From positions 105,276,177-105,340,000 of the forward strand of contig CM097883.1 of the NCBI GenBank assembly GCA_044892505.1: 63,824 nt of DNA, given 5' to 3'. A program made the translations under genes and the position numbers. The notes under the pieces are model-generated. The model ran no database searches, was not told where the DNA came from, and saw only the letters and a list, made by a program, of their open reading frames with translations. The first letter of the stretch is position 1. The number at the start of each line of letters is the position of its first letter. Origin of the DNA: Schmidtea nova (Eukaryota). Below, piece after piece: positions 14,574 to 56,746 of this stretch.

Positions 14574-14591
14574 TGGGGGCTCAGCCGGGAT
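14574..14591 (+). promoter_or_regulatory. Primer-binding site, tRNA-Pro-like
   Basis: TGGGGGCTCAGCCGGGAT, 16/18 to the classical tRNA-Pro PBS TGGGGGCTCGTCCGGGAT; 6 nt after the LTR end. Confidence 0.8.
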
Positions 14592-22600: not shown

Positions 22601-25600
22601 ATCAAGGAGTGGAACAGGAGGTAGTCATAGAAATGGTAAACGATTCAGAAGACGAGCAAGAACAACCACAGTTTACCCAAGAAATGGAAAGATGGTTAGA
22701 ACAGCGAGCGAACGAAGGAAGAGACGTTACAGAGGAAACCGGAAGAGCAACGAGATTCGTAGAAACCGGAACTGGAATGGAAAAACGACCAAGAGGAAGA
22801 CCAAAGATAGATCCAGCAACAGCAATTCCAAAGACAAGGGAAGAAAGGAGACAAGAGCAATGGGAGATTTGCTTGAAGAAACTGGATAAAATCGCAGAGA
22901 TCAGAGGCAAAGAAGAGAATCAAGTTTGTCAAGGAGAAGAATGGCTCACCAAAACGATAATGGATGTGTTAGCGATAATTGATCCAGAATTAAAGAATCT
23001 GTGGCGGATAAACGAACCCAGTACAAAGGCAAGGATGCTACACAATGCGATAGCACCAATTATGCCGGAATTGATAAAAGCGAAAACAAAATCGAATCAT
23101 CTAGATTGGCAAGGAACCACGATGTTAATAAAAAGGCTACTTAACGGAGCAGAGACGGACAGCAAATATCTAGTAGCAATCTCGTATACGATATACAATT
23201 TGTTAACGCTAAGCCGAGGAAGCCCGAAGTCAAGTCCGATGGGAAGACATATTAAAAATACGGCGATGATTATCGAGAAAGAAATTGAACCATATATCCT
23301 CAGGAAAGGAGGATGGGAAAAGTTCATAAAAGAGAACCAGACAAAAGAAGGGTCTAACGTGATGAGAAAGAAACTTGAAGGAGTATTGAGAGAAATGGAG
23401 AATAGACAAACAATGCAAGGAAACGGAAGATCGACGTTGAATTTAAACTCGATAATCATGATGATGTTAGTATGGTTGTTAAGCACGGAAGGTGTAACAA
23501 CATTTGAGGTATTTGATTGTGATCAAATGAAGTTAGGAGAAAAGTACTCATTGAGAGGTACGGAGCAGTGCAAAGATGCAACTCCAGTAGAGTTGAAAGA
23601 GATTAAAAAAGAACAATGGTACCACGTGTATCAAGAGGCAGAACTAATAAAGACAATGGTGAATGAATGCAAAGTGCAAAAGACGAGATTCGCATTCTAT
23701 TGTGGGAGAGGACATTATTCAGCAATTGTCATGCCAGGAACAGAAAGAGAACCAATCGTGTTGCAAGGGGAAGACTGCGAAGCATTATTTAAACATGGAG
23801 AAGTGACAACGAGAGATAAAATCAAGATAAAAGGAAAGCCAGGAATGATGTTGCAGCAGACGTATTATGTAGCAGGACGGATTACGGGAGGAGAAGGATA
23901 TTGTCAAGGAGAAACCTACCCAATATTCGGAGTACCTGCAACCAACTTAGTAGTGATGGATACGTACATAGTCGAATTGAAAAGCTACGAAGCATTCTTC
24001 GAACCGACCACAGGAGAAATGAAAACGTTATCCATGTGTAAAATTGACAGAAGTATGTGTCAAACGGGAATGTCAACATTGGTGTACAAACCAAAGGTGA
24101 ACGAATGTCAATTACAACTGCTACAAGGAGCAAAGTTCGACGAAATCCAAGGAAATACGTTCCAGGAAGAGGACGATGATGACAAAGCTAGAGCAAAACA
24201 TCTCAAAGAAGCTTTAGAAAACAAAAGACAATTGAGACCAGATCATAGAGAAAAACGAATAGAGATGAGAGCCACACCAACAGTGTTGATAACCACAAAT
24301 CAGGATGTGGGAATGAGATTCATAAAAAGGAAAGCAACCCTTAAGTGCAGTACAACAGTATACGAAACAAACTATCCAGGAATATACGTGTCAAAGCAAG
24401 AAGTGCCGAATGCGAAACCCAAGATCGACACAATGGATATCAAGCTACACTTGTATGTGAATAATAAAATGGATTTCTTATTCCATAGAGGACAAGCCTC
24501 ATTACAAAAAGTGTACTATGATCTGATAAACAACGATTGTATACTGAACCGGGAAATATTGAAGACAAAGTTGGCCGTAGCGATTACGAATCCAGATAGC
24601 GCGATGCCGTTATTACCACTGAGGGAAGGACATTTCGGAAGAGTGGTTGGAGAGGCAATGTACGTATACATTTGCGAAAAGACACACGCATCGCTAGCAG
24701 CAACAACGCAGTTGAAACCTGGACAATGTACAAATGAATTAGAAATCGATTATAAAGGAAAAGTACGATACGTTCAACCGGTGACGAGAATCATCAATCC
24801 ACCAGGGTTCGAACCAAATCCATTCAACTGTAGTAACGCGTACGGACCGCTTTATCAGAAGCCAGATGGCAAATGGGTTATGTTCCCAGGAAGAACCGAA
24901 GTATTAGCACCAAGAGAATTTGAGCTAATGCAGTTGTCAAAAGATAGACAGTTCAGCGACGTAGATGTCTCAAACAACGGAATCTATAGTCCAAAGGATT
25001 TAGAAGCAGCAAGGCAGAATATATTATTCCCGGCAAGAAGAGAAGCATTACTGTCAAATATCGTAACGATAACGGGAGGAACGAATTATCGAGAAGGACC
25101 GAATTACGAACTGTTGTTGTCACCGGCACATTTCAAGAAAGCCACAGAAAATATGATGAAGGCAATGTGGGGAAGATTCCTGATATTTGGACAAATGATG
25201 GCTGGAATACTGGGTGTTATATTGATAATACAAATCGTCAGAGTGATAATAACGCAAATGTTAGCGTGTTTCGACATCTACAAGAGAGAAAAGAAAGTGA
25301 ATTGGAAAATGGTAGTAGGGTTTTTACCATTCCTTGCGAAAACGATGGTGTTGCACGGACACTCAAAAGACATACATCGAATAAAGAGGTTATTGAAGAT
25401 ACTTGCAAAAATGAAAGGAACAAACGAAGATGTCGGAAGGAAATTCAAAAAGATAATGCAAGACGAGCAAGCAAGGCGACAACTCAAGAAAGAAAGGAAA
25501 GGATTATGGGAAAGAGTGAGGGGATACCGAACGCAAGATGATTCAAGTAATGATGATGACGATGACGATCAAGGAGGACAAGCGAATATAAACCAGATTC

Positions 25601-28600
25601 CACAGTATAACGAAAAGAGTGCAGTTGAGAATTGGAGATACAGCGCTCCACCTCAGTCAATGTACAACGAACCGATATACAAAGCGAAGCCGAATATGAT
25701 GCAGATGATGCCGATGACAAGTATATACCCGATAATTCCAGAAGGATGCAAAGTAAAACGAGGTGGAAGTGTAAATTCGTTGGAAGACACGCACACGATA
25801 GCGGTTATGTCCACAAATATGGGACCGATTTTAACAACAACCGTAGAAATAAACGGAAGAGAAATTGAAGCAATGATCGATACAGGCGCGAATATTTCGG
25901 CAATCGACATCAACTATATACCAGAGAAAAACCAAGGAGAAATTGAGAAAACGAATGTACATGTAATCGCGTGCAGTCAAGAGACAGTAGAAGTAGCCGG
26001 AAGATGGTTCGTAAGAATTAAGCATCGAGGTGCAGAGATCAACACGTACATCGCTGTAATACCATCGCTGAGTGTACCATGTATTATTGGAACTGACCTG
26101 ATGCCAGACCTGTTCAAGGAAATCGTAATCGATCTAGGAGCCATGAAGCTAAAAGATAGAACAGGAAAAATCTGCAGAATGAAAGTTAAAGTGGCAAGTG
26201 CGGAACAAATAGTAGTGCCAGCGAGGCACGAAATGATGTGCTATGTCAAGATCGATTCGACAATAAAGGGAGATATGGTATTCGAACCAAGTAAGAAGTT
26301 CGAAGCAAAGAAAGAATTACCAATGGCAAGAGAATTGGTTACGATAAATCAACAAGGAGAAATACCGATCAATCTGGTGAACTTCGACGAAGAGGACAAG
26401 ATAATATATGAGAATGAGAGATTGGGTAAATTGACACCCATGTCCGAAATCGAAATACCAGACAAGAACGAGAAAAGCAAAGACGAATTACCATGGAAAA
26501 TCGACAGTGTGTTGTTAGACGAACGACAAAAAGAACAGTTACAGAAACTGTTGATGGAATATAAAGATATATTCGCAGCATCAGATTTAGATCTGGGAAC
26601 ATGCGATGTAACATTACATACGATACCGTTGACGGACGAAACGCCGATCGCATTAAGACCATACAAACTGGCAGAAGCTCAAAAAGCAGTGGCAGAAGAA
26701 GAGGTACAAAAGATGTTAGATGCAGAGGTCATCGAACCTAGTTGCTCACCCTGGCAATTCCCAGTGGTGATGGTGAAAAAGAAGGATGGAACTCAGAGAT
26801 TCTGTATCGATTACAGACGGTTGAACGCAGTTACGAAAAGAGATACGTACCCACTGCCAGACATAAACGAAATGTTGTTGACGTTACAAGGAGCAGCTTA
26901 TTTCACGTCACTGGATTTAAAAAGTGGATATTGGCAGATCAAAATGAAAGACGAGGATAAAGAGAAGACAGCATTTACAATCGGACGAGATCTGTACCAA
27001 TTCAAGAAAATGCCGTTTGGGTTAACAAACGCGCCAGCATCATTCCAGAGATGCATGAATTTCGTAACACATGGCATAAAACAATGCATGGTGTACATCG
27101 ACGATCTATTGATCTACTCCGCAACATTCGAAGATCACTTACAAGACATCAGAAATGTGTTCGTGAAATTAAGGCAATGGAAACTGAAATTGAAGCCGTC
27201 AAAGTGCGATTGGGCAAAAGAGAAAGTGACTTTTTTAGGTCACATTGTATCGGCAAAAGGAAAAGAACCAGATCCAAGGAATATCGAAAAAGTCAAAGAA
27301 TGTCCACCACCAAAGACAGTGACTCAAATACAAGAATTTTTAGGATTGTGTGGATATTATCGAAAGTTCATCAAGGACTACGCAGGAATATCAAAGCCAA
27401 TGCAAGAATTGGTAAGACAAGATGTGTCGTTTGTATGGGGAGAAGAGCAACAAGCAGCATTTGAAACATTACGAGATAAGCTGATTACAGCACCAATATT
27501 GGTCCATCCAGACTTTAAGAAGCCATTTTTGCTGGCAACAGATGCAAGTGGATACGCAGCAGGAGCAGTACTAGGCCAATTTGACGAAGAAGGCAAGGAA
27601 AGAGTAATTGGGTACTATAGTCGAACGTTCAGAAAACATGAAAGGAATTACTCAGTCACAGAAAGAGAAGCCTATGCGATAATATTGGCAATCAAGCATT
27701 TCAAGTACCTACTGTGGGGTCATGAAATATATATCACGACGGATCATCAACCGCTAGTATGGTTAGGTCAACATAAAGAATCATCAAGTAGATTGATGCG
27801 TTGGGCGATGCAGTTACAAGAATACTCGCCATTCATAAAGTTTAAAGCAGGAAAAGCAAATGCAAATGCGGATTGCATGTCAAGGTTTACATTCCCAGAA
27901 TTGGTGAACCTAAACGCTCTGAAAATATGTGCATTAATAGCGGAGGATTTGGATTTCAGCGAACTAAGGAAAGATCAACTCGAAGACGAGGAGTTGGGAT
28001 TGATCAGCAAGTATTTGAAAGAAAGGGAAATAGAAATATTCGGCAAGAGCCAAACGTTGCGCGAACATATGCAGAAATATCAGCACCGATACGTGATGGA
28101 AAAAGGATGGTTATTGATACAGGATGGAGAACGGAGATTGATGTGCTTACCTGCGAATAGGCGAAAGGAAATCATGACTCAATATCATGACGGAAAATTA
28201 GGCGGACATATGTCAACAAAAAAGACAATCGGGAGACTGAGACAAAAGTACTTTTGGCCAACCATGGAAGATGATGTAAAAGAATGGATAAAGAACTGCT
28301 TAACCTGTGCAACAAGAAAGAACGTCGGAACAAAGTGGAAAACACCACTAAAACCTATGCCAATACCTGCAGAACCAATGGCGACGATAGCAATGGATGT
28401 AGTTGGACCATTGCCGGAAAGTTTAAAGGGGAATCAATATATATTAGTAGTCACGGACTATCTAACAAAGTTCCCAGAAGCATACGCAATACCGGATCAA
28501 AAGGCAAAAACAGTCGCGAGAATATTGGTGGAAGAGATATGCTGCAGATACGGAACACCAAAGAAAATCCTAACGGATCAAGGAACAAATTTCATGAGTG

Positions 28601-31600
28601 AAATATTGGACGAAGTTACGAATTACTTCAGAATTGCGAAATTACGAACATCCCCATACCATCCACAAACGAACGGTCAAACGGAAAGATTCAATGGAAC
28701 ATTAATACGCATGTTGTCAAATTACGTCAGTAAACATCAGACTGACTGGGACGAGTATATCAACTTGTGTTTAATGGCATATAGAATGTCAATACATGCA
28801 GCAACAAAGCTAAGTCCATTCCAACTGATGTACGGAAGAGATTGCAACTTACCGATCGATTTAGAATACCAACCACCATTATCACAGTACATGGAGGTTG
28901 ACGATTACGTTACAAAGTTCAAAGAAAGAATGCAAGAAATCTGGAAAACGGCGGAACTGAACATCAAGTTCTATCAAGAGAGTTACAAGGATCTGCATGA
29001 TCAGAAAAAGAATGTGAAAGCACATGATTTAAAAGTTGGAGATTGGGTGATAATCGAAACACCAGAGATAATACCCGGTACGGTCAAGAAACTCCAACGA
29101 CCAGGCAAAGGGCCATATGAAATCACAACAGTAAACGAAAATAATGTGCGAGTACGATTGGTGAACAATCCATTGGTAAGACCAATATACGTGAATGCAT
29201 GTCGATGCAGGAAAATACCAAAGACAGCAACTCTATCACCAGAGAAACGGGTAATGACAAGATCACAGACGGCGAGAATCAGTATGTTGCGAGTACAACA
29301 AAAGCCGCAAACAAGTCTAGAGGACAACCGAAGGGAGATAATAGACATCAAAGAACTGGCAAGGAAAACCAGAGAAATTATACCGGAATGGAGGTGGTGG
29401 CACGATTTCAATATACTGTCAGAAGTTCGAAAGAATGTAATGGAGTATGCAAAAGACAGAACAGCACATCCAATAACAAGGACGCTGCTAGAGGAGATCC
29501 CTCAGACATTGAATCTACAAGACAAAGACGGTAATACCGCGTTGCACAATGCAATCAAGCACAGTGGAAACGAAAAAGTGAAGGAAATTGTAGGGATGAT
29601 ACTCGAAGGTGGAGGAGAAATTGACAAAGTGAATTGGGAAGGAATTACTCCACTTATGATGATGACGATTCATGGAAGAAAAGATGAAATAATCAAGCTA
29701 TTCGGAAACACCAGATCGAATTGGTTGACAAAAGATAAAGAGGGACGAACATTCTTGAATCATGCAATTGATAGAGCGAATCACCGAATACTGAAGTATA
29801 TCACGGAAAATGCCACGTGGGAAATCGATGAACTAACTAGAGGATCGATCATGAAACAAGCAATCGGAGTAAGAAATAGTAAAACCTGGAGAATATTGCT
29901 AAAGTGGAAACGACCAGAAGGAGATTCGTGGGTCATAGATTGTAATGAAGTGTTCATAAGGGGAGAAAATGCGTTACTGAAACATCTATTAGAAGTAACA
30001 TACGATCCAAAAACACTTGCAGTGTTGATAGCGAGAGATACGCTACGGGTTAGTGAGAACCCAAGAGAATACAAGCTGGAAGACAGAAAGAAAGAATTAT
30101 TCGGATTAATCAAGAAATGGTGTGATAAACAATGGAATCCGGATATGAGCTTCGAACATTTCTATGACATCCAAAAGCAGCACAAAGAAATAAGCAAGCG
30201 ATATAAAGAGCTGGTGGAAGCATTGAAATATGGACAATTCTTCAGACAAGCAGTGTATCAAGACCAACGAATGAAACAGATGCAAACGCGAATAAGAAGC
30301 AAAGCAGTGTTGTTCAATGCAAAAGCGGAATATCAAGAGAGATTAGACGCAATCATAGCAAAAGCACAGGAAAGATTATCGGAATTCAAGGAGAATAAAA
30401 ACTCGTTGGAAATACTAGGAGCAATTACAGAGAAAGTACACAGATACGCACAAGGAGATTATAACGAGAGTGACATAGAAACGATCAAAAATCAAATGCC
30501 AGTGGCATTCCTATTATCAAAGGATGGGAGATTGCCGATACACTGGGCATTACGTCGAAAGAAAGAAAACGAAGTGCTAGAAATAACGAAAGCAATGGTC
30601 AAATGCGAAGCGGACATGAATACGGTTGATGATAACGGAGATACAATCATGATAATCGCAGCAAGAAAGAAGACGAGCCTGAAAGTACTAAACGAGTTAT
30701 ACGAAGCAGGAGCAAAAATCGAAGGGAAAAATGGAAAGAATAATTCCATCATAGATATCGCAATACAGTGGAACAACTTCGAGATGATCAAGTTCATAAA
30801 GTCCATCAAGAGACAAGAGGACATGGAATATCTGGCAAATAACGTAAAGAAGTTCAGTCTGACAGTAATGATACACGACATAGAGAAAACAAGAGCATTA
30901 CTAACATGGGTGAATCCGATCACCAAGGAACCGGCATTCAAGATCAATGACCATATAGAACAGAATCAGAATTGGTGTATCAGAAGCGCGTTGTTAAGAC
31001 ACAAAAAGCCAGAGATAGTAGAAGAATTCTTAAAGAGAAGAGATTTGAAGTTCACGAACAATCCAAAGGAACCCGAACGAACGGGAAGATGGAAAGACTT
31101 GTTCAGAAAATATGTGAATGAATGGACAAATGCCAAAGAAGCGATCAAGCAAAGTAGACTAGAAGACAGGGAACCATCCAAGGAGATGGAAATACGTGAA
31201 TTCGAGTCTAGCACACTCGCGGTTCAAGCGTATGAAAGATTGATTGAAGAAATTAATGTCGAGGACGACATTTTCAAAGGACCAGGGGGTGGTTACAGAG
31301 ATTTCGACGACAAAAGCAACAACGAAGAGAACAACGAAGACAATGACAACAAAAGAACGGAGGATAATGAAAAAGGAAGACAAGAAGAACCGAAGCCAAC
31401 GAGAAACGACAAGAAAAGAGAAGCAGAAGAACAAGAAAACAGTGGAACAAAAGACGAACATGCGAACTATGGAAAACGAACAGGAAGTCTACTTTTGAGA
31501 CCAGAAATGTTGTGTATCGCGATATTGTTAACAATCATCGGACAAGGAGAAGCCAAGAAACAATACGTCACGCTGGAAATAATCAGAGGAAACGAAGTAT

Positions 31601-33429
31601 ACGAAAGAATATGCTGGAAAGAGAACATGAGGAAAAACGATACGCTGAAGTGTATATTGTCAGATCTGAAGCGAGACGTCATCCAAATCAAGGGATTGGA
31701 AAAAGAAAAGTCATACATAATATGCGCAATAAAGCAGAGAGGAGAACCAAAAGCACCTCAAGTAACTGAATGTCAATTATATAAAGCAACAGAAGCGCTG
31801 AAAATACAGAAATGGATTGGAAAAAGAAGCGAAGAGACAACGAGAAGAACAGAAGTGGAACCAGAGAAAGGGAAGAATCAAACGGAAGCAGAAGAGGGAA
31901 TCAGAAACCGAACAGAGAAAGAAAGAATAACCAAAAATTCAGCGGGCAAATTAACATTCCAACCGGAATTGATATGTGTAGCATTAATACTAATCCTCAT
32001 TAAGAGAATCATGGAGGACATAGATATCAGCGTGATGACGTTGGTAAATATCCAAGACCAACGAACAACGAACGGAAGATGTTGGGGACGAAACAATGAA
32101 GTAATTGGAATCAGTGAAACAAGAGAAAGTCGAGAGGCAGAGACAAATGAGGAAATCGAGATAACTGAAATGGAAACAGAGAAAACATGTGAACTATGTC
32201 TCATGGAAAAAGCAACAAACGGAAACAGACCAGGAACAAGCGAGTGTAAAGTGTTCCAAGCAAAGGAGATAATTGAGTTCCCAAAAAGAAAGAAACAAGA
32301 TCAAGAAATGATTGCGAATGAAGTAGTAACCGTGGAGATAAAAAACATTGGTCGGAGAACAATTGGGATGTGTTGGAGAAAATACATCGGAGTATCGACC
32401 AGTCACGTACTACCGCAATGCAGAACGAGAGAACGAGGAATTCCGTTTCAACTAAATGGATTCGAAGTCGGACAAGCTTACGAAATTTGCATAATCCGAA
32501 GAATAAGAGAAATAATACAAAGAAGCCTGGAGTGCAAACTGTACAAGACGCCAGAGCAAATTAACGGAACAAGAACGATTGAAATGGGAAGAAGTCGACG
32601 GAGGAAAAGAAAGTCAAGAAGAACCACGACAACCAACAGTCAAGGAACTCAACAGACAACAGAAGGGACGTCAACAAAAAACGAACCGGAATCAACGACT
32701 CTGATAATATGGAAGATCCATAAAAAGGTCCTAGAAATCTGTTGGACATTAATGCCAAACAGTATGAGAGAGTCTCCACGAAACTGTCAAAAGACATCAA
32801 ATGACAAAAGGGAAATAATCGAGGTAGAAATGAGGAGGTTGAAAACAAACGCAGAATACGAAGTGTGTGCAATCGAAGAAGTAGACGCACAAGGAAATCA
32901 ACAAGAAAGGTGCGAAACCTATTACACGCCAAGGAACATAACGATAAAAGGGGGAACCCGCAAGTTAGAATTCCGAGAATTGAGTCAGAAAAGAGAACAA
33001 ACAGAGACGGAGGAAATACTACAAAATCAACAAGAAAGATGGGAACCCGAGAAAGTGATCGAAGAAGTCAGACAGAGACAACAACAATATGAACAATGGG
33101 AAGCAGAATGGAAAGGTCAATATGGCGTGATGATAAACCAAAGTGAAACTCCGAAGAGGAGCGTTGGGAAAACAATAATGGGATTAATCAGCATGGGAGT
33201 ATTCATAGGGTGTATACCGCTGATAACGATCATGATAGTATGTTGGAGATATGGCATGAGAAATAAGACCATAGCAGTAAAATGGCCAGACGTAAAGGTC
33301 ACGAACTACAACATAAAACTACCAAAAGGAGTACGAGAGGAACTGAAAAGACGATCAAAACACGAAGAGATGTGGGTACAGATCGAGGACGAAGAACTGT
33401 ACGAAGGAAAACCAGTGATAGTTGTATAG
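18547..33429 (+). CDS. 4960-aa Gag-Ubl-Bcl2-Env-Pol-Ank-FN3 polyprotein
   Basis: Single open frame; motifs listed in the sub-features. Confidence 0.96.
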   Translation: MSDHREDLREKFKGEPFNGDASRLDTFLKEFGIFVDICGWSAETLANRIPLYLKDSALDLYIEKRSGSNPPRTWEAIKEFFQQTFGINKVLNEAFDEFSARKQRRNESNAVYASELRKLAKLAFNRGSPVDEELMTALFVRGLRRPDIRAQVGCKGCKTVDEALEAANLFELHMEMNDMRITAVMGKTTEDEEQGKRNMNQSIPHSQRLFKEPPARKNNGYITVNTNGGNSYNDRQNRQCQTCGKNGHWQQECFQNVACKLCGQKGHSENRCYGKTCYTCGKTGHMSRDCNQQRSWSNSGNRQNYGNRPSYGNQGQQRNNPNSSANEASIKEAKLRQEVSRLHEIIESMAKGSQQAAQPKINMIQLIEAEAERENRESQQKHNQEWARVRREEEQVRQQRLQQLKKGNPRINMMRAMMEEKQQDESDEFEVKEKRNEEQRQEEVNQEVQEVEAAEQNQKVEEIEKETNQEAEVRIKQRGMLVIMPNDHVWRFKYDVKEEVGRLFNKVNEMMPGVTKLPREAFLQTEDLPEVKLKMTDIWEDMGVTETKINVMIIREVEPEKIPPPVKHQTRISRIFKGKIRRRRLEEIDELEKRMGKAEVTGNENELIQEVSKNEARPTAHIGMLRHPRQELSDEEDDSEVSSLAGDMLKEPENEDKKMEVVETIETMSVKEEEIQKLMDNALEVIHNEEYIDKKRYRKFIRAVWQMKYKEWLQEREVRVIQEFIEKLLKEPLNEYVIQIWINGCSPRIWIRNPMTDGIYRWVEDRLGSSYQDKFIYSENGLVRKGTHMIDTGIWPGEITTLSICNTKKEENLQGIVKEANTCYEMRIKPQLLEAKERILAENLNTMIEQIIQQIKKHRKELTKSEYENLKQCIENIRDTSQTRHSNFKTDKLIAKMGKEMFKRGEVSDLKITVRLPNEETKQIEVIPDSKVGEIVDVINETILQREREDEFEDDIAIKYKEHLLNERDERRAYKIGIWDNYQTIHVIRMDDVPRITTKDEERRKKRQEDVMRKLRQIVEIYRNWQMKPEWETILGELDLNRRRLTPVEKQWDNKEKCWKVKRGVYEEDPEGEDRYERNTKRICMVTRRLLPTDLDGPETAVIWAELEKQKTSELIELTRGNTRGKRQTIKGLAQFIISNGEDITNLRKVAKAIAEYKRVNEWCPEQLDDVIKKWRNKEFAEETPQKIHLRIMYPNQRKEEFWVMLTEKVKSVKEKLMYELPFHLQHQGRSLDNNLEIWLTPVQLDLMNTLTVAQIVGQPLKFKEEKKTKGSLSTPSPMKSTMTPGTSSGQARTTPIKTRERTPPEAYDVDEILTDSDEAIEELTKLTQKPTANIFDRIIEMPITSPAEIDDQGVEQEVVIEMVNDSEDEQEQPQFTQEMERWLEQRANEGRDVTEETGRATRFVETGTGMEKRPRGRPKIDPATAIPKTREERRQEQWEICLKKLDKIAEIRGKEENQVCQGEEWLTKTIMDVLAIIDPELKNLWRINEPSTKARMLHNAIAPIMPELIKAKTKSNHLDWQGTTMLIKRLLNGAETDSKYLVAISYTIYNLLTLSRGSPKSSPMGRHIKNTAMIIEKEIEPYILRKGGWEKFIKENQTKEGSNVMRKKLEGVLREMENRQTMQGNGRSTLNLNSIIMMMLVWLLSTEGVTTFEVFDCDQMKLGEKYSLRGTEQCKDATPVELKEIKKEQWYHVYQEAELIKTMVNECKVQKTRFAFYCGRGHYSAIVMPGTEREPIVLQGEDCEALFKHGEVTTRDKIKIKGKPGMMLQQTYYVAGRITGGEGYCQGETYPIFGVPATNLVVMDTYIVELKSYEAFFEPTTGEMKTLSMCKIDRSMCQTGMSTLVYKPKVNECQLQLLQGAKFDEIQGNTFQEEDDDDKARAKHLKEALENKRQLRPDHREKRIEMRATPTVLITTNQDVGMRFIKRKATLKCSTTVYETNYPGIYVSKQEVPNAKPKIDTMDIKLHLYVNNKMDFLFHRGQASLQKVYYDLINNDCILNREILKTKLAVAITNPDSAMPLLPLREGHFGRVVGEAMYVYICEKTHASLAATTQLKPGQCTNELEIDYKGKVRYVQPVTRIINPPGFEPNPFNCSNAYGPLYQKPDGKWVMFPGRTEVLAPREFELMQLSKDRQFSDVDVSNNGIYSPKDLEAARQNILFPARREALLSNIVTITGGTNYREGPNYELLLSPAHFKKATENMMKAMWGRFLIFGQMMAGILGVILIIQIVRVIITQMLACFDIYKREKKVNWKMVVGFLPFLAKTMVLHGHSKDIHRIKRLLKILAKMKGTNEDVGRKFKKIMQDEQARRQLKKERKGLWERVRGYRTQDDSSNDDDDDDQGGQANINQIPQYNEKSAVENWRYSAPPQSMYNEPIYKAKPNMMQMMPMTSIYPIIPEGCKVKRGGSVNSLEDTHTIAVMSTNMGPILTTTVEINGREIEAMIDTGANISAIDINYIPEKNQGEIEKTNVHVIACSQETVEVAGRWFVRIKHRGAEINTYIAVIPSLSVPCIIGTDLMPDLFKEIVIDLGAMKLKDRTGKICRMKVKVASAEQIVVPARHEMMCYVKIDSTIKGDMVFEPSKKFEAKKELPMARELVTINQQGEIPINLVNFDEEDKIIYENERLGKLTPMSEIEIPDKNEKSKDELPWKIDSVLLDERQKEQLQKLLMEYKDIFAASDLDLGTCDVTLHTIPLTDETPIALRPYKLAEAQKAVAEEEVQKMLDAEVIEPSCSPWQFPVVMVKKKDGTQRFCIDYRRLNAVTKRDTYPLPDINEMLLTLQGAAYFTSLDLKSGYWQIKMKDEDKEKTAFTIGRDLYQFKKMPFGLTNAPASFQRCMNFVTHGIKQCMVYIDDLLIYSATFEDHLQDIRNVFVKLRQWKLKLKPSKCDWAKEKVTFLGHIVSAKGKEPDPRNIEKVKECPPPKTVTQIQEFLGLCGYYRKFIKDYAGISKPMQELVRQDVSFVWGEEQQAAFETLRDKLITAPILVHPDFKKPFLLATDASGYAAGAVLGQFDEEGKERVIGYYSRTFRKHERNYSVTEREAYAIILAIKHFKYLLWGHEIYITTDHQPLVWLGQHKESSSRLMRWAMQLQEYSPFIKFKAGKANANADCMSRFTFPELVNLNALKICALIAEDLDFSELRKDQLEDEELGLISKYLKEREIEIFGKSQTLREHMQKYQHRYVMEKGWLLIQDGERRLMCLPANRRKEIMTQYHDGKLGGHMSTKKTIGRLRQKYFWPTMEDDVKEWIKNCLTCATRKNVGTKWKTPLKPMPIPAEPMATIAMDVVGPLPESLKGNQYILVVTDYLTKFPEAYAIPDQKAKTVARILVEEICCRYGTPKKILTDQGTNFMSEILDEVTNYFRIAKLRTSPYHPQTNGQTERFNGTLIRMLSNYVSKHQTDWDEYINLCLMAYRMSIHAATKLSPFQLMYGRDCNLPIDLEYQPPLSQYMEVDDYVTKFKERMQEIWKTAELNIKFYQESYKDLHDQKKNVKAHDLKVGDWVIIETPEIIPGTVKKLQRPGKGPYEITTVNENNVRVRLVNNPLVRPIYVNACRCRKIPKTATLSPEKRVMTRSQTARISMLRVQQKPQTSLEDNRREIIDIKELARKTREIIPEWRWWHDFNILSEVRKNVMEYAKDRTAHPITRTLLEEIPQTLNLQDKDGNTALHNAIKHSGNEKVKEIVGMILEGGGEIDKVNWEGITPLMMMTIHGRKDEIIKLFGNTRSNWLTKDKEGRTFLNHAIDRANHRILKYITENATWEIDELTRGSIMKQAIGVRNSKTWRILLKWKRPEGDSWVIDCNEVFIRGENALLKHLLEVTYDPKTLAVLIARDTLRVSENPREYKLEDRKKELFGLIKKWCDKQWNPDMSFEHFYDIQKQHKEISKRYKELVEALKYGQFFRQAVYQDQRMKQMQTRIRSKAVLFNAKAEYQERLDAIIAKAQERLSEFKENKNSLEILGAITEKVHRYAQGDYNESDIETIKNQMPVAFLLSKDGRLPIHWALRRKKENEVLEITKAMVKCEADMNTVDDNGDTIMIIAARKKTSLKVLNELYEAGAKIEGKNGKNNSIIDIAIQWNNFEMIKFIKSIKRQEDMEYLANNVKKFSLTVMIHDIEKTRALLTWVNPITKEPAFKINDHIEQNQNWCIRSALLRHKKPEIVEEFLKRRDLKFTNNPKEPERTGRWKDLFRKYVNEWTNAKEAIKQSRLEDREPSKEMEIREFESSTLAVQAYERLIEEINVEDDIFKGPGGGYRDFDDKSNNEENNEDNDNKRTEDNEKGRQEEPKPTRNDKKREAEEQENSGTKDEHANYGKRTGSLLLRPEMLCIAILLTIIGQGEAKKQYVTLEIIRGNEVYERICWKENMRKNDTLKCILSDLKRDVIQIKGLEKEKSYIICAIKQRGEPKAPQVTECQLYKATEALKIQKWIGKRSEETTRRTEVEPEKGKNQTEAEEGIRNRTEKERITKNSAGKLTFQPELICVALILILIKRIMEDIDISVMTLVNIQDQRTTNGRCWGRNNEVIGISETRESREAETNEEIEITEMETEKTCELCLMEKATNGNRPGTSECKVFQAKEIIEFPKRKKQDQEMIANEVVTVEIKNIGRRTIGMCWRKYIGVSTSHVLPQCRTRERGIPFQLNGFEVGQAYEICIIRRIREIIQRSLECKLYKTPEQINGTRTIEMGRSRRRKRKSRRTTTTNSQGTQQTTEGTSTKNEPESTTLIIWKIHKKVLEICWTLMPNSMRESPRNCQKTSNDKREIIEVEMRRLKTNAEYEVCAIEEVDAQGNQQERCETYYTPRNITIKGGTRKLEFRELSQKREQTETEEILQNQQERWEPEKVIEEVRQRQQQYEQWEAEWKGQYGVMINQSETPKRSVGKTIMGLISMGVFIGCIPLITIMIVCWRYGMRNKTIAVKWPDVKVTNYNIKLPKGVREELKRRSKHEEMWVQIEDEELYEGKPVIVV
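20752..22320 (+). other. Three ubiquitin-like domains (20752-20958, 21271-21516, 22105-22320)
   Basis: By-eye alignment to ubiquitin, e.g. LKITVRLPNEETKQIEVIPDSKVGEIVDVI...YQTIHVI and IHLRIMYPNQRKEEFWV...KVKSVKEKL...HQGRSLDN...NTLTV; none ends in GG; first copy weakest. Confidence 0.6.
22940..23340 (+). other. Bcl-2-like domain
   Basis: EPYILRKGGWEKFIKE resembles BH2 (WIQ.NGGWD.FV); preceding helical pattern and spacing fit BH1-BH2, but NWGR is not conserved. Confidence 0.65.
23443..25400 (+). other. env: Envelope/fusion glycoprotein (chuvirus-glycoprotein-like, class III type)
   Basis: Internal signal peptide IIMMMLVWLLSTEG, Cys-rich ectodomain starting FEVFDC, TM at 25171-25272; collinear homolog at 58900-60790 (-). 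Confidence 0.8.
25820..26170 (+). other. Aspartic protease
   Basis: EAMIDTGANISAI (DTG at 25879); CIIGTDLM. Confidence 0.93.
26590..27880 (+). other. pol: Reverse transcriptase and RNase H
   Basis: SPWQFPVVMVKKKDG..RFCIDYRRLN, MPFGLTNAPASFQ, VYIDD (27094); LATDASG, TERE, TDHQPL, NADCMSR. Confidence 0.97.
28000..29220 (+). other. Integrase (HHCC, DDE, GPY)
   Basis: HDGKLGGH...CLTC; AMDVVGP; LTDQGTNF; NGQTERFN; GKGPYEI. Confidence 0.96.
29500..30810 (+). other. Ankyrin repeats, two blocks (~29500-29880, ~30510-30810)
   Basis: QDKDGNTALHNAI, VNWEGITPLMM, DKEGRTFLNHAI; KDGRLPIHWAL, DDNGDTIMIIAA, GKNNSIIDIAI. Confidence 0.9.
31483..33429 (+). other. C-terminal membrane module: internal signal-like segments, four FN3-like repeats, TM (33175-33246), cytoplasmic tail
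   Basis: Repeated CW...L....Y(E/I)(I/V)C...EC..Y.T at ~31560-31790, 32020-32260, 32320-32550, 32690-32930; hydrophobic EMLCIAILLTIIGQGEA and ELICVALILILIK. Confidence 0.65.
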
Positions 33430-33552
33430 AGGGTGGAATATGAGTGTAAATAATAGTGTAAAAACCAATGCATAACCGTATACGTATGGGTATAAATATT
33501 ATAAAGCATAAAAACAGAAAAAAGAGAATGATGTATATAATCTAGAAAAACG

Positions 33553-33903
33553 ATGAACCAAGAAAATATCGAGATGTCAATGATGACGAGATGGAAAGTA
33601 CAATGCGACCTGCTAGCCAGAACAGTAAATGAATTACAGAGCCAGTTGACGGCAAAAACGCAATTATTAACCGAGAGCTATAACTGTAATTTCGAAGCAA
33701 TGAACAAAATCGAGATTCAACAACTACAGATAAACGAATTACAGAACGAGAATCGAACATTAAATGAAGTGAACAACTGGCAAGCAGAGGAAATTGACCG
33801 ATTAACGAGACATGAAGAGGAGGAGATACCGGATAGTTGGACGAGCTGGATTATAAATGAGATAGACGTGTATCCAGAGCCGGATTCAACTGAGGATGTA
33901 TAG
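33553..33903 (+). CDS. Coiled-coil accessory protein (116 aa)
   Basis: Sense ORF, heptad pattern, acidic tail, same codon style as the polyprotein. Confidence 0.6.
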   Translation: MNQENIEMSMMTRWKVQCDLLARTVNELQSQLTAKTQLLTESYNCNFEAMNKIEIQQLQINELQNENRTLNEVNNWQAEEIDRLTRHEEEEIPDSWTSWIINEIDVYPEPDSTEDV

Positions 33904-33992
33904 TGAATAAGCGGAAAATTGTGTAAATACGTGTAAATAAAGAACCAGAAAAAATCAAAATATGGGGAAATTGATGTAAATATTGTTAAAGA

Positions 33993-35405
33993 ATGAGAGC
34001 GGAAAGTGAAGCAGACTACCAAACAATCGAAATTCTGAGAGGAGAAAATCGACAATGGGGAGTAAATGTGACGTGTGTAAAGTGTAAAAATTTACTGTTA
34101 AAACCGAGACAAACGGAATGTGGATGCAGGATGTGCACCAAGTGTATATTACAGATAATCAGTGAAAGTGAGACAAGAAAGTGTCCAGAGTGTGACGATA
34201 AACTACTGATCAACGAGACAAAACCAGATAAAGCAATACAAAAGGAGATCTGGAAGATAAAAACAGAGTGTATAAACCAACCATGCGAATGGAAAGGACA
34301 AATAATCGAGCTAAGACAACATCTGGAAAAATGCGAAAACAAGAAAGCGACATGTGAAAAGTGTCAACAGACAATAACCATCAAGCAGTCGAAAGGTCAC
34401 AAGAATGAGTGCAAATCAGAGATAATAGAGTGTCAATACTGTGAACAAAGAGAGACGAGAGAAGTAATCGAAACAGAACATCTCAACGTAGCAGAAGAGA
34501 AAGTGTGCGGAAAATTCAGAGGAATTTGTCCAAGTAATTGTGGAACCGGAGAAGAAGTGATGTTGAGAGAACATTGGGAACAATGCGAATCAAGACCAAG
34601 AAAGTGCGTATGGAGTAAACAAGGATGCGTAGTAAAGAAAACGAGCAAAGAAATGAAAGAGCATTTAGAAACAGAGACGGTACAACACGCAGAGATGTTA
34701 ACAGAAAATTTGAACGGAATGGAACAAACCATACAGAAACTGGGAAAGGAAATCGAATCTCAGAGGATAATGACGGAGTTATTACTGGAAACGAGAGAGC
34801 AATTCGAGCTCACCAGAGAGAAAATGATGGAGAAAATCAAAGTCATAGAGACATTGGTAAAAGAAGTAAACGTGCGACATCAAATGTGGATACGAGATAC
34901 AGAGGATATCGAGAATTTACCTGTTGCACCATATGTATAGAAAATCAAGAACTTCAACGACAAGTTCGCAGCAGCAAAAGCAGGAAGTCAAGTGTCGGTA
35001 ACAAGTCCACCATTCTATCTGTGGAAAAATGGATACAAAGTTCGAATGAGAATTTATCCAAATGGAGATGGATCAGGAAAGGAAACGCATGTGTCATTAT
35101 TCTTTGCGTTGTGTAAAGGTGGTTACGACGACATATTAGAATGGCCACTAGAAACAAAGGCTATAATGAGAGTGAAAAACTCGAAAGAAACAATAGCGAG
35201 AGTATTCAAAATTGATGGTAAGCACGAAGCTTACAAAAGACCAACCACAGAATGTTCATTAGCGACTGGAGAACCAAAATTCATACCACACCAAACAATG
35301 TGGGAGATGTTGTACGACGACAACTTGTATGTAGAGTTGAAGATCGAAAAGAAAGCAAGTACAACAGTGATGAACACGAAGTCAACGAAAGGATGGTTAG
35401 AGTAG
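33993..35405 (+). pseudogene. TRAF-family protein (RING, TRAF zinc fingers, coiled coil, MATH) with one in-frame TAG at 34938-34940
   Basis: CVKCKNLLLKPRQTECGCRMCTKC...CPEC; PYV*KIKNF; SPPFY...GYKVRMRIYPNGDGSGKETHVSLFF...YDDILEWP; both listed ORFs share one frame. Confidence 0.92.
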
Positions 35406-35494
35406 TCAGAGTGAACGACCCTGTAAATAAAGTGTAAAAATCGACGACAACAATAAACGTATAGTATAACAAGTGTAAATTTGTAAATTACAGA

Positions 35495-36655
35495 ATGGAA
35501 AACGCAAATGAATATGTAATCGAAGAGGAAACGAGAAACGAGATGTCAAACGAACAAGAAGCAATCGAAAGAGAAATCGAAAAGAGATGTAAAGTGGAAG
35601 TAGAACAAAGAACCAGGGAATTACACGAAGTGATGACAAACAATTTCTACGAGAAACTAAAATGCGAGAGACGAATGGAGTTATACCAACTAGAACTCGA
35701 GGAAGTGAATAAAGAGATGATACAACTGACAACACAAATAGAGAAGCTAAAAGGAACGAATGTACGAAGTCGACAGAAGATAGAAGAGGTATATCAGTTG
35801 ATGAGGAAACAAGCAGAACATTATAAAAATATGATGAAAACGCGAAGAGAAGAGAGTGAGAAACAAGAGGAAAAGATGGAGGTAAAAATACTAGCAATCA
35901 AGGCTCAAGCGAGACATTGGAAAATGGAGTCGAAACGAGTGTATAAAGAAGCCAAAGAGATAATCAGAAAGACAGCATACAGCGAAGATTGGAAACTGTA
36001 TCAAGAGATAGACGAATTGAAAGAGGAATTGGAACAGAGAAAGCGACAAGAACAAGCAAACAAAGAATGGAGTCGAAAACGACAGCGATTTATTCGAGAA
36101 CAAGCAAAGGAACTAAAGAAAACGCAATGGCAAATACAGATGATAAATGGAGAAATGCGAGGTATCAGACAGAAAGAGGAAGCGGAAAGACAAAAGTTGA
36201 TCAGGGAAAAAGAAAGTCTGGAAAGAGATGTAAATGGTTATCAAGGGGTGGTGACCCAAAAGAAAATGGAGTTGAAAGCAGTGAAAGAAAGACATGCGGA
36301 ATCAAACCGAGCTTACGAGGAAAACATAACGAACTTGACGAAAGAAAACGAGGAGCTGAAACAACAAATAATAACCCTGAAAGCAGAGAAAGAAACCATA
36401 GAAGTAGAAACCGAACCTACAGAAGTAGAAGCCCTGAAGAGAAAAGTGGAAGAGATGGAAAGACAAATTGAAACTCTAAGCGAACAATCAGATTACATGG
36501 AGTATCTGTTAGATGAAGAGATACAAATCTCTCGAACGTATCAAGATGAAATTGCAATGTGGAGAAGCAGAGTGGTGTGGTTACCGTTTATACCACCACC
36601 ACCAATGGAACTCCAAGATGAAGGGTTCCATGAACCAGAGGAGACGGATGTGTAA
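35495..36655 (+). CDS. Long coiled-coil (SMC-like composition) accessory protein, 386 aa
   Basis: E/K/R-rich heptads throughout; C-terminal PFIPPPPME. Confidence 0.75.
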   Translation: MENANEYVIEEETRNEMSNEQEAIEREIEKRCKVEVEQRTRELHEVMTNNFYEKLKCERRMELYQLELEEVNKEMIQLTTQIEKLKGTNVRSRQKIEEVYQLMRKQAEHYKNMMKTRREESEKQEEKMEVKILAIKAQARHWKMESKRVYKEAKEIIRKTAYSEDWKLYQEIDELKEELEQRKRQEQANKEWSRKRQRFIREQAKELKKTQWQIQMINGEMRGIRQKEEAERQKLIREKESLERDVNGYQGVVTQKKMELKAVKERHAESNRAYEENITNLTKENEELKQQIITLKAEKETIEVETEPTEVEALKRKVEEMERQIETLSEQSDYMEYLLDEEIQISRTYQDEIAMWRSRVVWLPFIPPPPMELQDEGFHEPEETDV

Positions 36656-36674
36656 AAAGAGGCGAAAAATCCAA

Positions 36675-37199
36675 ATGAGCTGGCTCAAATCCCTACCAAT
36701 CCTAACGATTATGTTAGCTACAACAATAATGAACTGCTCAACAACCGAAATCCAAAGAACCCTGTCAAACGAGATATCCCAAGAGATTGAAAAACAACTA
36801 AACGAAGTCAGAGGAGACTTGAAACAATTAATACGACAAATGCGAATCAGTCATGATCATCGCAAACCCTTACAAACCCTATTCAATCAAATCGAGAAGA
36901 TCCGAGAAATCCATAAAACCTTTCAAGATCACCTAAAGCCAATCAAAAGTCAAACCCAAATCGAATCCGAAATCCGAAACAGATGGATCATCGTTGGAAT
37001 AGTCACAATGACAATATTGACAATCATCCTGATCATCGTGATCACGTATACCCTATATCGAATCAGAAGCCTCAAACAACAACAAACGATAATGTGTAAA
37101 TGCGCCAAAAGAGAAGCAAAAACCCAACAAAGGATGAGAAGTCATCTACGACAAATTCAAGCCCGATACGAAATGCAGTCAACCAGTGAAAGGACCTGA
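36675..37199 (+). CDS. Small type-I membrane protein (174 aa)
   Basis: MSWLKSLPILTIMLATT signal-like start, coiled-coil ectodomain, TM WIIVGIVTMTILTIILIIVITYTLY, basic tail; real start inferred at ATG 36675. Confidence 0.7.
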   Translation: MSWLKSLPILTIMLATTIMNCSTTEIQRTLSNEISQEIEKQLNEVRGDLKQLIRQMRISHDHRKPLQTLFNQIEKIREIHKTFQDHLKPIKSQTQIESEIRNRWIIVGIVTMTILTIILIIVITYTLYRIRSLKQQQTIMCKCAKREAKTQQRMRSHLRQIQARYEMQSTSERT

Positions 37200-37401: not shown

Positions 37402-38858
37402 TGTTGGGCCAGCCAAATCGAGCAGCATCTGAAAATAATATACAATCAATAAAATAAATTAAATACAGAATAACAACAAAATAAATTACCAACACCAAAG
37501 CGTAACAAAATAGGCGGCAACATCTAAAAGAAATAAAATATTAATCAAAACAACAAAATCTTCAAAACTTACTCATGCGAAGCAGATAAAATCTGAATAT
37601 GACAGCGCGTGGGCGGATGTCACCAAAGACCTATAAACAAAAATAAAATAAAATAAATCGATGACTAAGAAAAACTTACCGCATGATTAACCAAACAAAT
37701 CGGCAAGTTAAGTTAGGCAGCAAAAAGCCGACAACACAAAATAATGAAGCAAACATACACACATACTCGATGCTGATTGGCTAACCAACAACACCGGTGG
37801 AGTATAAATACTGAAGTCAAATCAGTATTTGACAATGTTATCTTTACCAAGTGTGAACTGTTTGTGACTACTGAAATCATTGTGAAACGAATTTGGAAAA
37901 GAAATAAAGGTAATTCATGTTGCATTAGTCTTTTAAACCCTCATAATTATTTATAACCATACGAAAATCCATAAGGTTTTCCGGAGGCCTAACAGCCTGA
38001 CGGATTCTCGGGCCTCTCAGCGCAACACAATCTTTCGGTTGTGAGGTGCTGATGCGGCGGGACTATAGGTGTTCTAAATATTTAACAAGCGGAAGGGGGA
38101 AGGGCACATCGGATATCTCATGCCATCGTAACCTCAGTAGGGGGAGAAGCAATTGAAGGACGTATCATCTGTCACGACAACATCGAGTACCTTGGTTTAC
38201 GTCAGAGACGCGTTGTTAGACACAAAGTGTCCAGCGGTCGCAAAGTCAAGTAGAGTAGCGACAACTTTGTGCAGAGGGTAAGTGTCATGATAAATTGGGC
38301 ACTGACGACGATAGGGATATATAACGCATGAGCTATGTGAGTCAACGACCGATAGTGCTAGGGTCAGAGTAAAACCATGAATCCACAGAATATCCCAACA
38401 CATATCTACGCCTAACGAAGGGTACGAAGGGTAGACCCACGAAATGTAATGCAAGTACAATCTGTACCCAATTAACCTGAATAAGGGGTCGATCCTGTTC
38501 CCCGGATGATGTGATTCTTGATGGTTGAACCTGAGGTATGGAGGTAACACCTGAGGAATGATTGAGCATGATTGTTGTAAAAAATAAACCAAAATGGTCT
38601 ATGAAATGATGATATTCTAACATAATAAATGATCAAGTGATCATCATAAATGAATACAGATTGTCATAAACTGCACTAAGTTTTTGCGTGGCCAAATCAG
38701 TTAAGCACCTTGACATAGTGAATACACTCAACCACATGACGATAACATACAACCTACCTACTATCTTGAACATCGAACCGATCTAACACTGAAACACCAA
38801 CGGCAACCTACAGAGTTTTACTCTTGAGTCGAGTAGGTCGCCGATTATAAATAATTGC

Positions 38859-39542
38859 ATGCACCTAACAAATTCATCACAATCACATCTTCTTGTCTTC
38901 AGAAAAATGATAAAGACCGAAGAATATCAAAGAAGTCCGAGCACCTATCGACAGATGAAAATGGAAGATTATGTCGTCCGGAAACCACGACGCATCCGTT
39001 CCGTCGTCTGGCCAAGGAGGATCCCTACCATCGAGGGAGAAATGGAAGCCCCACGCAGAATTAGCGAAACTGCGCGTCGCTACCTACGGCGGTGGACGAG
39101 ACACCATATGAGTGCAGCCGCAGATGTTCCGGCTTGCGCCTTCACGATACAATTACGATGGGAAGGAGACCCCGATTGGATGTCCACCATGGACCCTGCC
39201 GAACCAAGGACCGATAGATGGTTCTTCCAATTTCTCGACGAGCAGAGACGACCCCGCTGGGTATTGAGCAATGGAATGATGACCGGAAGGGCTCTTTTCC
39301 AATTAGGATACCTGCTGTTAGACAGGCCTCGGTGTCGCTACACTGAGGAAGTCTTCACTTATTCCAATGCACCAGGAAGTGTTTCCGTGGAACAACACCC
39401 CGAGCCCAAGGAGCTTCGCCTCTGGGAGGTGTTTATCTACAAAGATAAGCTGAGTTGGAACCCAGCCCCAGAAATGTATTGGGAGAATGGAATCCGTCGC
39501 GACGAACATCCTGCCGATCAGGAATTGAGGACATTCAATTGA
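38859..39542 (+). CDS. LTR ORF1, 3' LTR copy
   Basis: Same as 12752-13435 except one R>W change. Confidence 0.5.
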   Translation: MHLTNSSQSHLLVFRKMIKTEEYQRSPSTYRQMKMEDYVVRKPRRIRSVVWPRRIPTIEGEMEAPRRISETARRYLRRWTRHHMSAAADVPACAFTIQLRWEGDPDWMSTMDPAEPRTDRWFFQFLDEQRRPRWVLSNGMMTGRALFQLGYLLLDRPRCRYTEEVFTYSNAPGSVSVEQHPEPKELRLWEVFIYKDKLSWNPAPEMYWENGIRRDEHPADQELRTFN

Positions 39543-39689
39543 TTGATACCGAGAAAGAATGATTGTCTTAGATATTGAAATATATGTATTGGCGTGTGAC
39601 GGTCTTGTTTTGTTTTTGGGTGCATGAGAACAACCTAAGGATAGGGTAGAGTTGTGTAATGACGATAGGGTGACCGAAAGATCAGACAC

Positions 39690-40289
39690 ATGACATATAC
39701 TACCATTAATGATATATTTACAGACATGACGGAACCCAAGGGCAGAGATTTCAAGCAAGAGGCGCGAGAACACAAGGCGCGCTCACGAGTCCTGGAGAAT
39801 CGATTAAGGCAGCTGAATGAGGAGTATCAGCGGGTTAAAACGACATGGTTTAGCCCAGAGCGGGTTAAGTCCATCCTGCAGGCTAGGTACAGGGCAGAAC
39901 GAGTAGCTGAGGAACATGCCAGAGAGATTGCCGCCCTGAAATTAGAGTTGGCGAATTATTTGAAGGTATCGACTCGCGACTTCATTACCGAACAACTACG
40001 CCCAGTGATCAGAGCTAGCACCTTTAATCGATGGATAGACACGATAGCGGTGACCACGAGCACCCAAACAGAGACCGATACCATCGCAACCACGACGATC
40101 GAATCAACAATGAAAACTCCAGCCGGTTCGAAACGAACAAAGAGGAGGAATCGCTTAGGAGCGAAAAAGCGCAGGGAAAGACGCGCATATGCAGATCGCC
40201 TTGGAATCGAAGTAGACTTGCTCAGTGGTCTATCCGAGCAAGAACTACTAAATGTAATACGACCCTCGGTATTGTTGAACTATAAATAA
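39690..40289 (+). CDS. LTR ORF2, 3' LTR copy
   Basis: Identical translation to 13583-14182. Confidence 0.55.
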   Translation: MTYTTINDIFTDMTEPKGRDFKQEAREHKARSRVLENRLRQLNEEYQRVKTTWFSPERVKSILQARYRAERVAEEHAREIAALKLELANYLKVSTRDFITEQLRPVIRASTFNRWIDTIAVTTSTQTETDTIATTTIESTMKTPAGSKRTKRRNRLGAKKRRERRAYADRLGIEVDLLSGLSEQELLNVIRPSVLLNYK

Positions 40290-40672
40290 ATGTATAAAAC
40301 GAATGAGTTGACTTGTCTTGTTTGTATGTGGAATGTCTGAAAATGGAATGTAGATAAAACCCGGATTCATTTAAAGCTGCAGATGTCTAAAAAGTACATT
40401 ACCCTAGGACACTAGAAAGGAGCATAAGTGGGACCGAAAGAAAGCCACAGACACCTTCTATCGGTAGTGGTGGACCCGTGAATAAACAAGGGAATAGTAG
40501 CCGAAAGGTTGCTCACCTGCCTTGTCATTTCACAACGTTGACACAGCACCAACATGATGAGTAGTTAGGGATACATCATGGGTGTCAGCGGGGGAATGTT
40601 TTTATGTTGGCGAGATCACCCTAACATATAAAATCATGAGGATCTCAGTTGTCAATCTAACCAACACACCAG

Positions 40673-40674
<2 letters not shown>

Positions 40675-56667: not shown

Positions 56668-56746
<79 letters not shown>

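Follow-up and report, generated by a model that had tools for sequence, protein, structure and literature searches.

A Burro-type giant gypsy LTR retroelement of 29,380 bp (29.4 kb), recognized by self-comparison of the window (the whole 63,824-nucleotide stretch of Schmidtea nova DNA analysed here), houses a TRAF gene. Its features lie on the forward strand. The long terminal repeats (LTRs) are direct repeats of 3,273 bp each, at 11295-14567 and 37402-40674, which are 99.94% identical with two mismatches. The 5' LTR has the form TG...CA, and an (AT)n run lies on both sides of the element, before the 5' LTR and after the 3' LTR. A putative primer-binding site, read from the sequence, begins 6 nt past the 5' LTR (14574-14591) and may resemble proline-tRNA sites; no tRNA was found in the window. 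Each LTR also carries two ORFs of 227 and 199 aa without a Pfam match (12752-13435 and 13583-14182, plus their 3' LTR copies). Homologs of these, at 33-43% identity, occur in an LTR fragment at locus L072, and the N-terminus of a public protein, P0043, resembles the second LTR ORF in an apparent gene-model fusion to a host TRAF.

Inward of the 5' LTR, an accessory ORF of 152 aa (15127-15585) ends in an IAP-type RING (zf-C3HC4_3, Pfam E 5e-9) that matches the RING of a BIR-RING ORF in a second element family (family 2, below). Tandem arrays with 19-, 36- and 85-nt units, at 16298-16881 and 17276-17679, occupy the long leader between this ORF and a polyprotein of 4,960 aa without internal stop (18547-33429). 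The polyprotein comprises Gag with CCHC knuckles, a mononegavirus-like fusion glycoprotein, protease, RT, RNase H, integrase and ankyrin repeats, and the Pfam matches of its retroelement core run in the order Retrotrans_gag, zf-CCHC, RVP, RVT_1, RT_RNaseH, Integrase_H2C2 and rve. The envelope-like domain separates gag from pol without a change of frame (Monjiviricetes_fusion, E 7e-71, best stretch 1906-2246, ahead of the protease at 2431), and the ankyrin match (Ank_2, E 5e-17) is C-terminal to the integrase. The window element is thus a Burro-type giant gypsy: about 30 kb, long LTRs, a single polyprotein near 5,000 aa, and ankyrin and MATH_TRAF_C cargo. This setting, which the earlier note did not name, explains the presence of a TRAF gene here.

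Four ORFs follow the polyprotein, and the TRAF gene is the second. The first (116 aa, 33553-33903) is open in 30/30 copies with a pN/pS of 0.07, and its family 2 homolog likewise sits upstream of TRAF. The third (386 aa, 35495-36655; pN/pS 0.13) has a family 2 homolog and no Pfam match. The fourth (228 aa, 36513-37199) contains hydrophobic stretches and has a putative splice acceptor directly before its ATG, which is absent in 10/30 copies.

The remainder of the window is a mixed neighborhood. A host-like exon with an SH3 domain (6488-7267, reverse strand) lies 4 kb from the 5' LTR, and an ORF for a MULE transposase of 601 aa occupies 42879-44684 on the forward strand. On the reverse strand, a decayed relative (55295-61313) is spread over several frames, with pieces of a fusion glycoprotein, protease, RT, RNase H and integrase and a (TA)n run interrupting it. 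Also on that strand, 62363-63684 contains a separate ORF for an integrase core (291 aa) and one of 149 aa that weakly matches poxvirus rpo30; the two are possibly part of a Polinton-like element.

The TRAF frame (33993-35405) comprises 471 codon steps with one internal TAG at codon 316 and a terminal TAG. The earlier note had described RING, zinc fingers, coiled coil and MATH in a single intronless frame, broken once, with Cys in place of the usual RING His; translation, Pfam and a structural model agree with that description, and translation runs uninterrupted by any intron. The N-terminal part (33993-34937), which is the predicted 315-aa product of this copy, contains an all-Cys RING (codons 28-67), TRAF zinc fingers and a coiled coil (229-304). 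The premature TAG (34938-34940) falls in the first strand of MATH, and the MATH (TRAF-C) domain continues in frame to the terminal stop (34941-35405). Ahead of the internal stop, Pfam reports TRAF3_RING (E 8e-5) and zf-TRAF (E 4e-5), both slightly below the curated cut-offs; beyond it, TRAF-mep_MATH (PF21355) scores E 4e-26. An AlphaFold model of the 315-aa part has a mean pLDDT of 93.3 and a long helix at 229-304. Foldseek ranks the N-terminal domains of TRAF6 and TRAF5 first for this model, the best being TRAF6 (rmsd 1.9 A over 140 columns, E 8e-12), so that the sub-cut-off RING and zinc finger matches are joined by a fold match. The solved structures closest to the window MATH are the MATH domains of TRAF5, 3, 1 and 2. 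As for the defining features of the family, the gene has both coiled coil and MATH, while the product of the window copy would lack MATH. The fourth RING ligand is not the His of C3HC4: the eight ligands are Cys 28, 31, 43, 45, 48, 51, 64 and 67, with Cys45 at the usual His place.

A stop codon private to one copy

Other copies of the gene were collected by a DNA search of the same genome, which returned 30 loci after scoring 40 of 599 candidates; the ranking prefers window-like copies and is hence biased toward finding a shared stop. Nevertheless, codon 316 is open in 29/29 other fetched copies. The whole 470-aa frame is open in 26/30, and none of the 30 has an indel. Private stops occur in four of them: the window copy at 316 and three others at codons 44, 143 and 280, the pattern that random decay predicts. 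A genome-wide pattern with TAG or TAA at codon 316 has one match, the window. With codon 316 left free and the flanks kept identical there are 82 matches, of which 80 have the same sense codon, one has TAG (the window) and one has TGA; the TGA copy is older, about 87% identical, with a frameshift near codon 84. The earlier note had offered either a fresh mutation in this copy or a read-through switch, and genotyping of the codon in the other copies supports the former and refutes the latter. The TAG at codon 316 is a nonsense change private to the window copy, an ordinary broken copy of an interesting cargo gene.

A programmed switch giving both a RING-only and a full-length TRAF would be in keeping with a frame that runs cleanly on into a conserved MATH, with a stop near a domain boundary and with the second stop (TGA) at the same codon. 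We nevertheless consider it extremely improbable. A stop conserved among functional copies is not what the 82 matches contain, the TAG being unique and the TGA copy old and frameshifted; the family 2 TRAF has no internal stop in 12/12 loci; and the stop takes away MATH only, leaving zinc fingers and coiled coil in place. The next 70 nt fold weakly (-8.3 kcal/mol, a value without a shuffle control). The base that follows the TAG is A.

A single-base assembly error, with the copy intact in the animal, is very unlikely, even though the window base at 34939 appears in no contig of four public runs. The same four runs also lack the window bases at 33717 and 33724, which are common to 7 and 12 of the 29 other copies, so these runs are blind to rare alleles. 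Further arguments against an error are the agreement of the LTRs at 3,271/3,273 bases, the open 14.9-kb ORF and the presence of some private stop in 4/30 copies. Over 3,471 positions compared, six bases are peculiar to the window copy, and two of these fall at the putative acceptor ahead of TRAF. Whether the stop arose at reverse transcription or after insertion was assessed by setting five private events in 3,471 nt against the two LTR mismatches (p=0.053). Strand-biased G-to-A hypermutation was considered and is not supported, since private changes across the copies (G>A 40, A>G 38, C>T 25, T>C 19) are approximately symmetric per base. The window copy would yield a 315-aa product without MATH, which, with more than 130 copies in the genome, probably makes no difference.

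Strong purifying selection acts on the intact gene. At least 132 copies have the TRAF start region, as counted by genome-wide matches, and pairwise comparison of the 30 fetched copies gives a pN/pS of 0.111 at a pS of 0.14, with a bootstrap interval of 0.083-0.149 that is approximate in that copy pairs are non-independent. By domain, pN/pS is 0.053 for RING, 0.117 for zinc fingers, 0.073 for coiled coil and 0.111 for MATH, and neighboring ORFs range from 0.07 to 0.14. All 28 Cys/His residues within positions 1-240 are invariant in 30/30 copies. Private changes amount to 99 nonsynonymous, 73 synonymous and 4 stops, where 119, 46 and 11 would be expected without selection. These figures describe the best matches (30 of 599 candidates, and 12 of 91 matches for family 2), which biases them to young, intact copies. 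The low pN/pS, the invariant ligands and the deficit of stops and replacements together indicate that the TRAF serves the element; selection demonstrates usefulness to the element without saying which use. Along the gene (33993-35402), the nearest neighbors of the window copy among L002-L030 shift, with L002/L003 closest mid-gene and others at both ends, which suggests inter-copy recombination.

Accessory genes, spacers and related families

The spacers between the accessory ORFs measure 89-123 nt, and two of three contain AATAAA. The 89-nt spacer before TRAF (33904-33992) combines AATAAA with three TGTAAA repeats, and a putative splice acceptor immediately precedes the TRAF start; in the 89-nt spacer after it (35406-35494), AATAAA is joined by four TGTAAA repeats, and a putative acceptor lies a single base ahead of the following ATG. 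This latter acceptor is pyrimidine-AG in 30/30 copies. The acceptor before TRAF is common to 99 of the 100 copies listed (132 matches in all), the window alone departing from it, at 33988-33989. Repeats of TGTAAA(T) cluster in these two spacers and at 33430-33552, with 9 in 301 nt out of 25 in the 22.8-kb internal region; we take them to resemble Pumilio or Forkhead sites.

An acceptor was scored as a pyrimidine-AG preceded by at least four T and within 6 nt of the start, a definition set after the sequences had been viewed. Four of five accessory starts pass in the window's family (family 1) and 6/7 in family 2, against 12/564 and 13/371 background ATGs; in these counts the family 1 TRAF is judged by its other copies, and the second ATG is used for two family 2 ORFs. 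Acceptors near most accessory starts fit separate mRNAs, and the accessory ORFs are likely expressed from separate spliced or trans-spliced messages, as judged from sequence. Short spacers, poly(A) signals in 2/3 of them and acceptors at 4/5 and 6/7 starts are the combination that marks a trans-spliced operon. Macrostomum operons have a modal spacing of about 100 bp (PMC8629364). No splice-like joint was seen in the four public contig runs.

A second multicopy TRAF, 34-38% identical to that of the window, was obtained with the public protein P0004 as query (91 matches scored of 3,016 candidates) and defines family 2. It is 467 aa long and open in 12/12 loci, with a pN/pS of about 0.13. An internal TAG that at first appeared family-wide (90/91 matches) was dismissed as the normal terminal stop in 12/12 loci, the query being a few residues longer. 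The one family 2 copy examined has LTRs of 4,251 bp, 99.95% identical, and the gene order of the window element; its shortened polyprotein of 1,036 aa has no RT or integrase matches. Directly after TRAF in family 2 comes a BIR-RING ORF (IAP). The pairing of TRAF with IAP rests on family 2, as the window's family has the RING ORF only, with no BIR found. Word-index protein searches gave two matches for the window TRAF and none for the family 2 IAP. The family 2 copy examined, at L091/L092 (contig 1, 30094728-30119653), has intact accessory ORFs, TRAF and the BIR-RING IAP among them, and so has the look of a young element that is non-autonomous but has retained its cargo; an inverted partial copy adjoins it directly.

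In a third family, MATH lies within the polyprotein and groups with the accessory MATH (support 97/96), in a tree of 33 rows from which 18 rows, including family 2, had dropped out where the cutting motif was missed, and in which the rows share a residue bias. One old capture likely lies behind both the polyprotein MATH and the accessory MATH, to judge by this grouping. At L068 (4431-4448; contig 2 near 167493430), an internal deletion has fused the polyprotein frame, near the RT start, to MATH via short homology, leaving an open frame of 1,304 aa; this may illustrate how MATH can move into the polyprotein frame.

Host relatives and the source of the gene

A protein search against 1.84 billion representatives found best single-stretch full-length matches of 31-35% identity to the TRAF, and three named Dendrocoelum lacteum TRAFs are among the ten matches looked up. 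A MATH family search of the same genome (150 of 2,419 candidates scored) identified eight host loci with RING to MATH in one open frame (L032, L036, L037, L038, L040, L051, L064 and L066). All eight are intronless with a Cys-for-His RING. Cys occupies the RING His place in 30/30 element copies, in family 2 and, of 158 relatives fetched, in 24 of the 105 whose motif could be read (53 could not). The substitution is a clade trait, no defect of the window copy. A host TRAF4-like gene (L039/L076) has introns and His, and falls outside the planarian-type clade. Host MATH-containing genes (L032-L038, and L042-L061 in part) form a large cluster near the end of contig 2 (405-455 Mb), where many have MATH exons of 160-210 aa arranged in tandem.

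A TRAF tree was built from 38 of the 77 rows collected, with MATH-only, partial and redundant rows excluded. Element-type TRAFs group together (99/97) inside a planarian-type clade of 22 rows (100/100), the base of which the tree leaves unresolved; the element rows, with which P0004 and P0039 group, have an unusual residue make-up that could draw them together. Constraining the 16 host-type rows to a single clade is not rejected by an AU test (p-AU 0.272), so that the tree establishes placement within the planarian-type TRAF clade but not nesting inside the host clade. The earlier note had proposed capture of a host mRNA from the lack of introns. The grouping with planarian host TRAFs agrees with capture; the intron argument fails, the closest host relatives being themselves intronless, and intron loss was discarded as proof of mRNA capture. 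The intron-bearing parent that would mark a retrocopy is not among the close relatives, L039/L076 falling outside the clade. Intronlessness and the Cys RING are uninformative on the element, because they are common to the host paralogs. An intronless host TRAF is the likely ancient source of the gene, with capture from the host clade as the simplest reading of the sequences, and the direction of transfer would be from host to element.

Transfer in the opposite direction, such that the intronless Cys-RING TRAF clade of the host came from an element-borne or element-processed TRAF, appears unlikely. It would suit the uniform state of the eight one-frame host paralogs beside a TRAF4-like gene with introns and His, and both the unresolved base of the 22-row clade and the unrejected host-only sister clade leave room for it. 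TRAFs occur as host genes throughout the animals, however, so the original source was a host gene. Dendrocoelum, represented in the clade, lies outside Dugesiidae, the family with reported Burro elements (PMC6431247), and at eight loci checked over 8-9.5 kb no host member is arranged in tandem with accessory ORFs of Burro. One old retroposition by any RT would account for the intron loss. Among those eight loci, L072 has an opposite-strand LTR fragment, and remnants of decayed pol lie close to L073 and L074. At L065 (3491-4664), an intronless TRAF4-type frame of 391 aa, which groups with the intron-bearing L039, adjoins an opposite-strand frameshifted gypsy pol and is possibly a true retrocopy.

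D. japonica TRAF2-like A groups with host L035/L036. According to PMC7586133, Smed-TRAF-2A/B is the co-ortholog of that protein, and its RNAi is lethal and raises cell death in planarians. PMC6109357 reports TRAF/MATH expansion and, in the passages that do so, draws no link to elements. A broader proposal would make Burro elements endogenous viruses with a TRAF-IAP ubiquitin-ligase cassette organized as a host-style trans-spliced operon, and would have the planarian intronless Cys-RING TRAF clade, including a relative of the essential TRAF-2A/B, domesticated from the element-borne TRAF; we put it forward as a decidedly improbable extension.

Predicted role and comparison with known systems

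TRAFs act as trimers in which MATH binds receptor tails or adaptors and RING ubiquitinates partners, and TRAF2-cIAP is a survival module. The element TRAF would be expressed from its own spliced mRNA via the acceptor before its ATG, by cis-splicing or spliced-leader trans-splicing. By analogy with TRAF2/3/6, the intact protein would trimerize through coiled coil and MATH; its MATH would bind receptors or adaptors, and its RING would transfer ubiquitin in an E2-dependent manner. The effect would be anti-death or immune-dampening, as suggested by the IAP-type cargo that adjoins TRAF, and would favor survival of element-expressing cells. Keeping such cells alive or damping their defense is the likeliest benefit to the element on this analogy. 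Burro1 is expressed in differentiated cells upon PIWI loss (PMC8532177). Our best explanation of the locus, to which we assign a probability of roughly 0.7, is a private TAG in a Burro TRAF whose intact form was likely captured, is conserved, and is predicted to be a survival-favoring ubiquitin-ligase adaptor.

A possible but doubtful alternative is that selection maintains the TRAF for a cis or structural role within the element's own cycle, such as ubiquitin-dependent budding, polyprotein turnover or action as a dominant-negative decoy for host TRAFs. Purifying selection on each copy lineage suits a product that serves its own template, and a related family with MATH only, inside the polyprotein, indicates that MATH binding can suffice. 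Against this, RING, all zinc ligands and MATH are conserved together, and family 2 joins TRAF to a BIR-RING IAP, recalling TRAF2-cIAP.

The stop itself is unimportant, and the cargo is what matters: a complete, strongly selected TRAF in at least two families of retrovirus-like elements, once beside an IAP. With it, the conjecture in print that Burro interferes with apoptosis and ubiquitination becomes a testable claim with named proteins. Planarian TRAF/MATH gene counts, and RNAi against these genes, may include element copies. The acceptor-fronted layout suggests a way for a 30-kb RNA genome to express many accessory genes. MATH domains in Burro are already published (PMC6431247), the only description of Burro cargo in the literature we found. 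Neither a complete, selected TRAF within an operon-like cassette nor accessory genes preceded by acceptors are described in that literature; Grohme et al. 2018, Jurka 2007 or supplements may describe full TRAF accessory ORFs.

With vertebrate TRAF2/3/5/6, the element protein shares a RING-zinc finger fold like that of TRAF6 and a MATH most like TRAF5/3/1/2, but its RING His ligand is replaced by Cys and there is no one-to-one orthology. Planarian-type TRAFs (Dendrocoelum lacteum TRAF-2, -4 and -5, Dugesia japonica TRAF2-like A and L032-L064) have in common with it the clade, the domain order, a length of about 440-490 aa and the Cys RING, and those of this genome are likewise intronless. The element TRAF differs in being only about 30-34% identical to them, in existing as more than 130 mobile copies, and in having the base make-up of the element (GC 0.39, A 0.42), whereas six host genes have GC 0.30-0.38.

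For expression, the precedent is Cer1, a gypsy element of C. elegans, whose subgenomic mRNA undergoes both cis-splicing and SL1 trans-splicing, the splice sites being passed over in full-length RNA (PMC3315495). Cer1 is thus an LTR-element precedent for a spliced subgenomic mRNA; it makes one such mRNA, whereas the window element appears, from its sequence alone, to have a series of accessory genes, every one preceded by an acceptor of its own.

The closest known system is Burro/GYPSM1, the giant gypsy-like LTR retrotransposons of dugesiid planarians described in PMC6431247. Shared features are a length of about 30 kb, long LTRs, one polyprotein near 4,900-5,100 aa with Gag CCHC knuckles, a mononegavirus-like env in frame between gag and pol, PR-RT-RH-IN, ankyrin repeats, MATH_TRAF_C and accessory ORFs. 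BIR, BCL2-like, SUMO-like and dUTPase domains gave no Pfam match in the window's polyprotein (searched whole at E<=0.01 and, apart from the PR-IN part, as six segments at E<=0.1), whereas PMC6431247 used HHpred for Burro. In those elements ORF1 contains the MATH domain in S. mediterranea, and in D. tigrina the domain sits in an accessory ORF upstream, whereas the window element carries a complete RING-zinc finger-coiled coil-MATH gene, downstream of the polyprotein.
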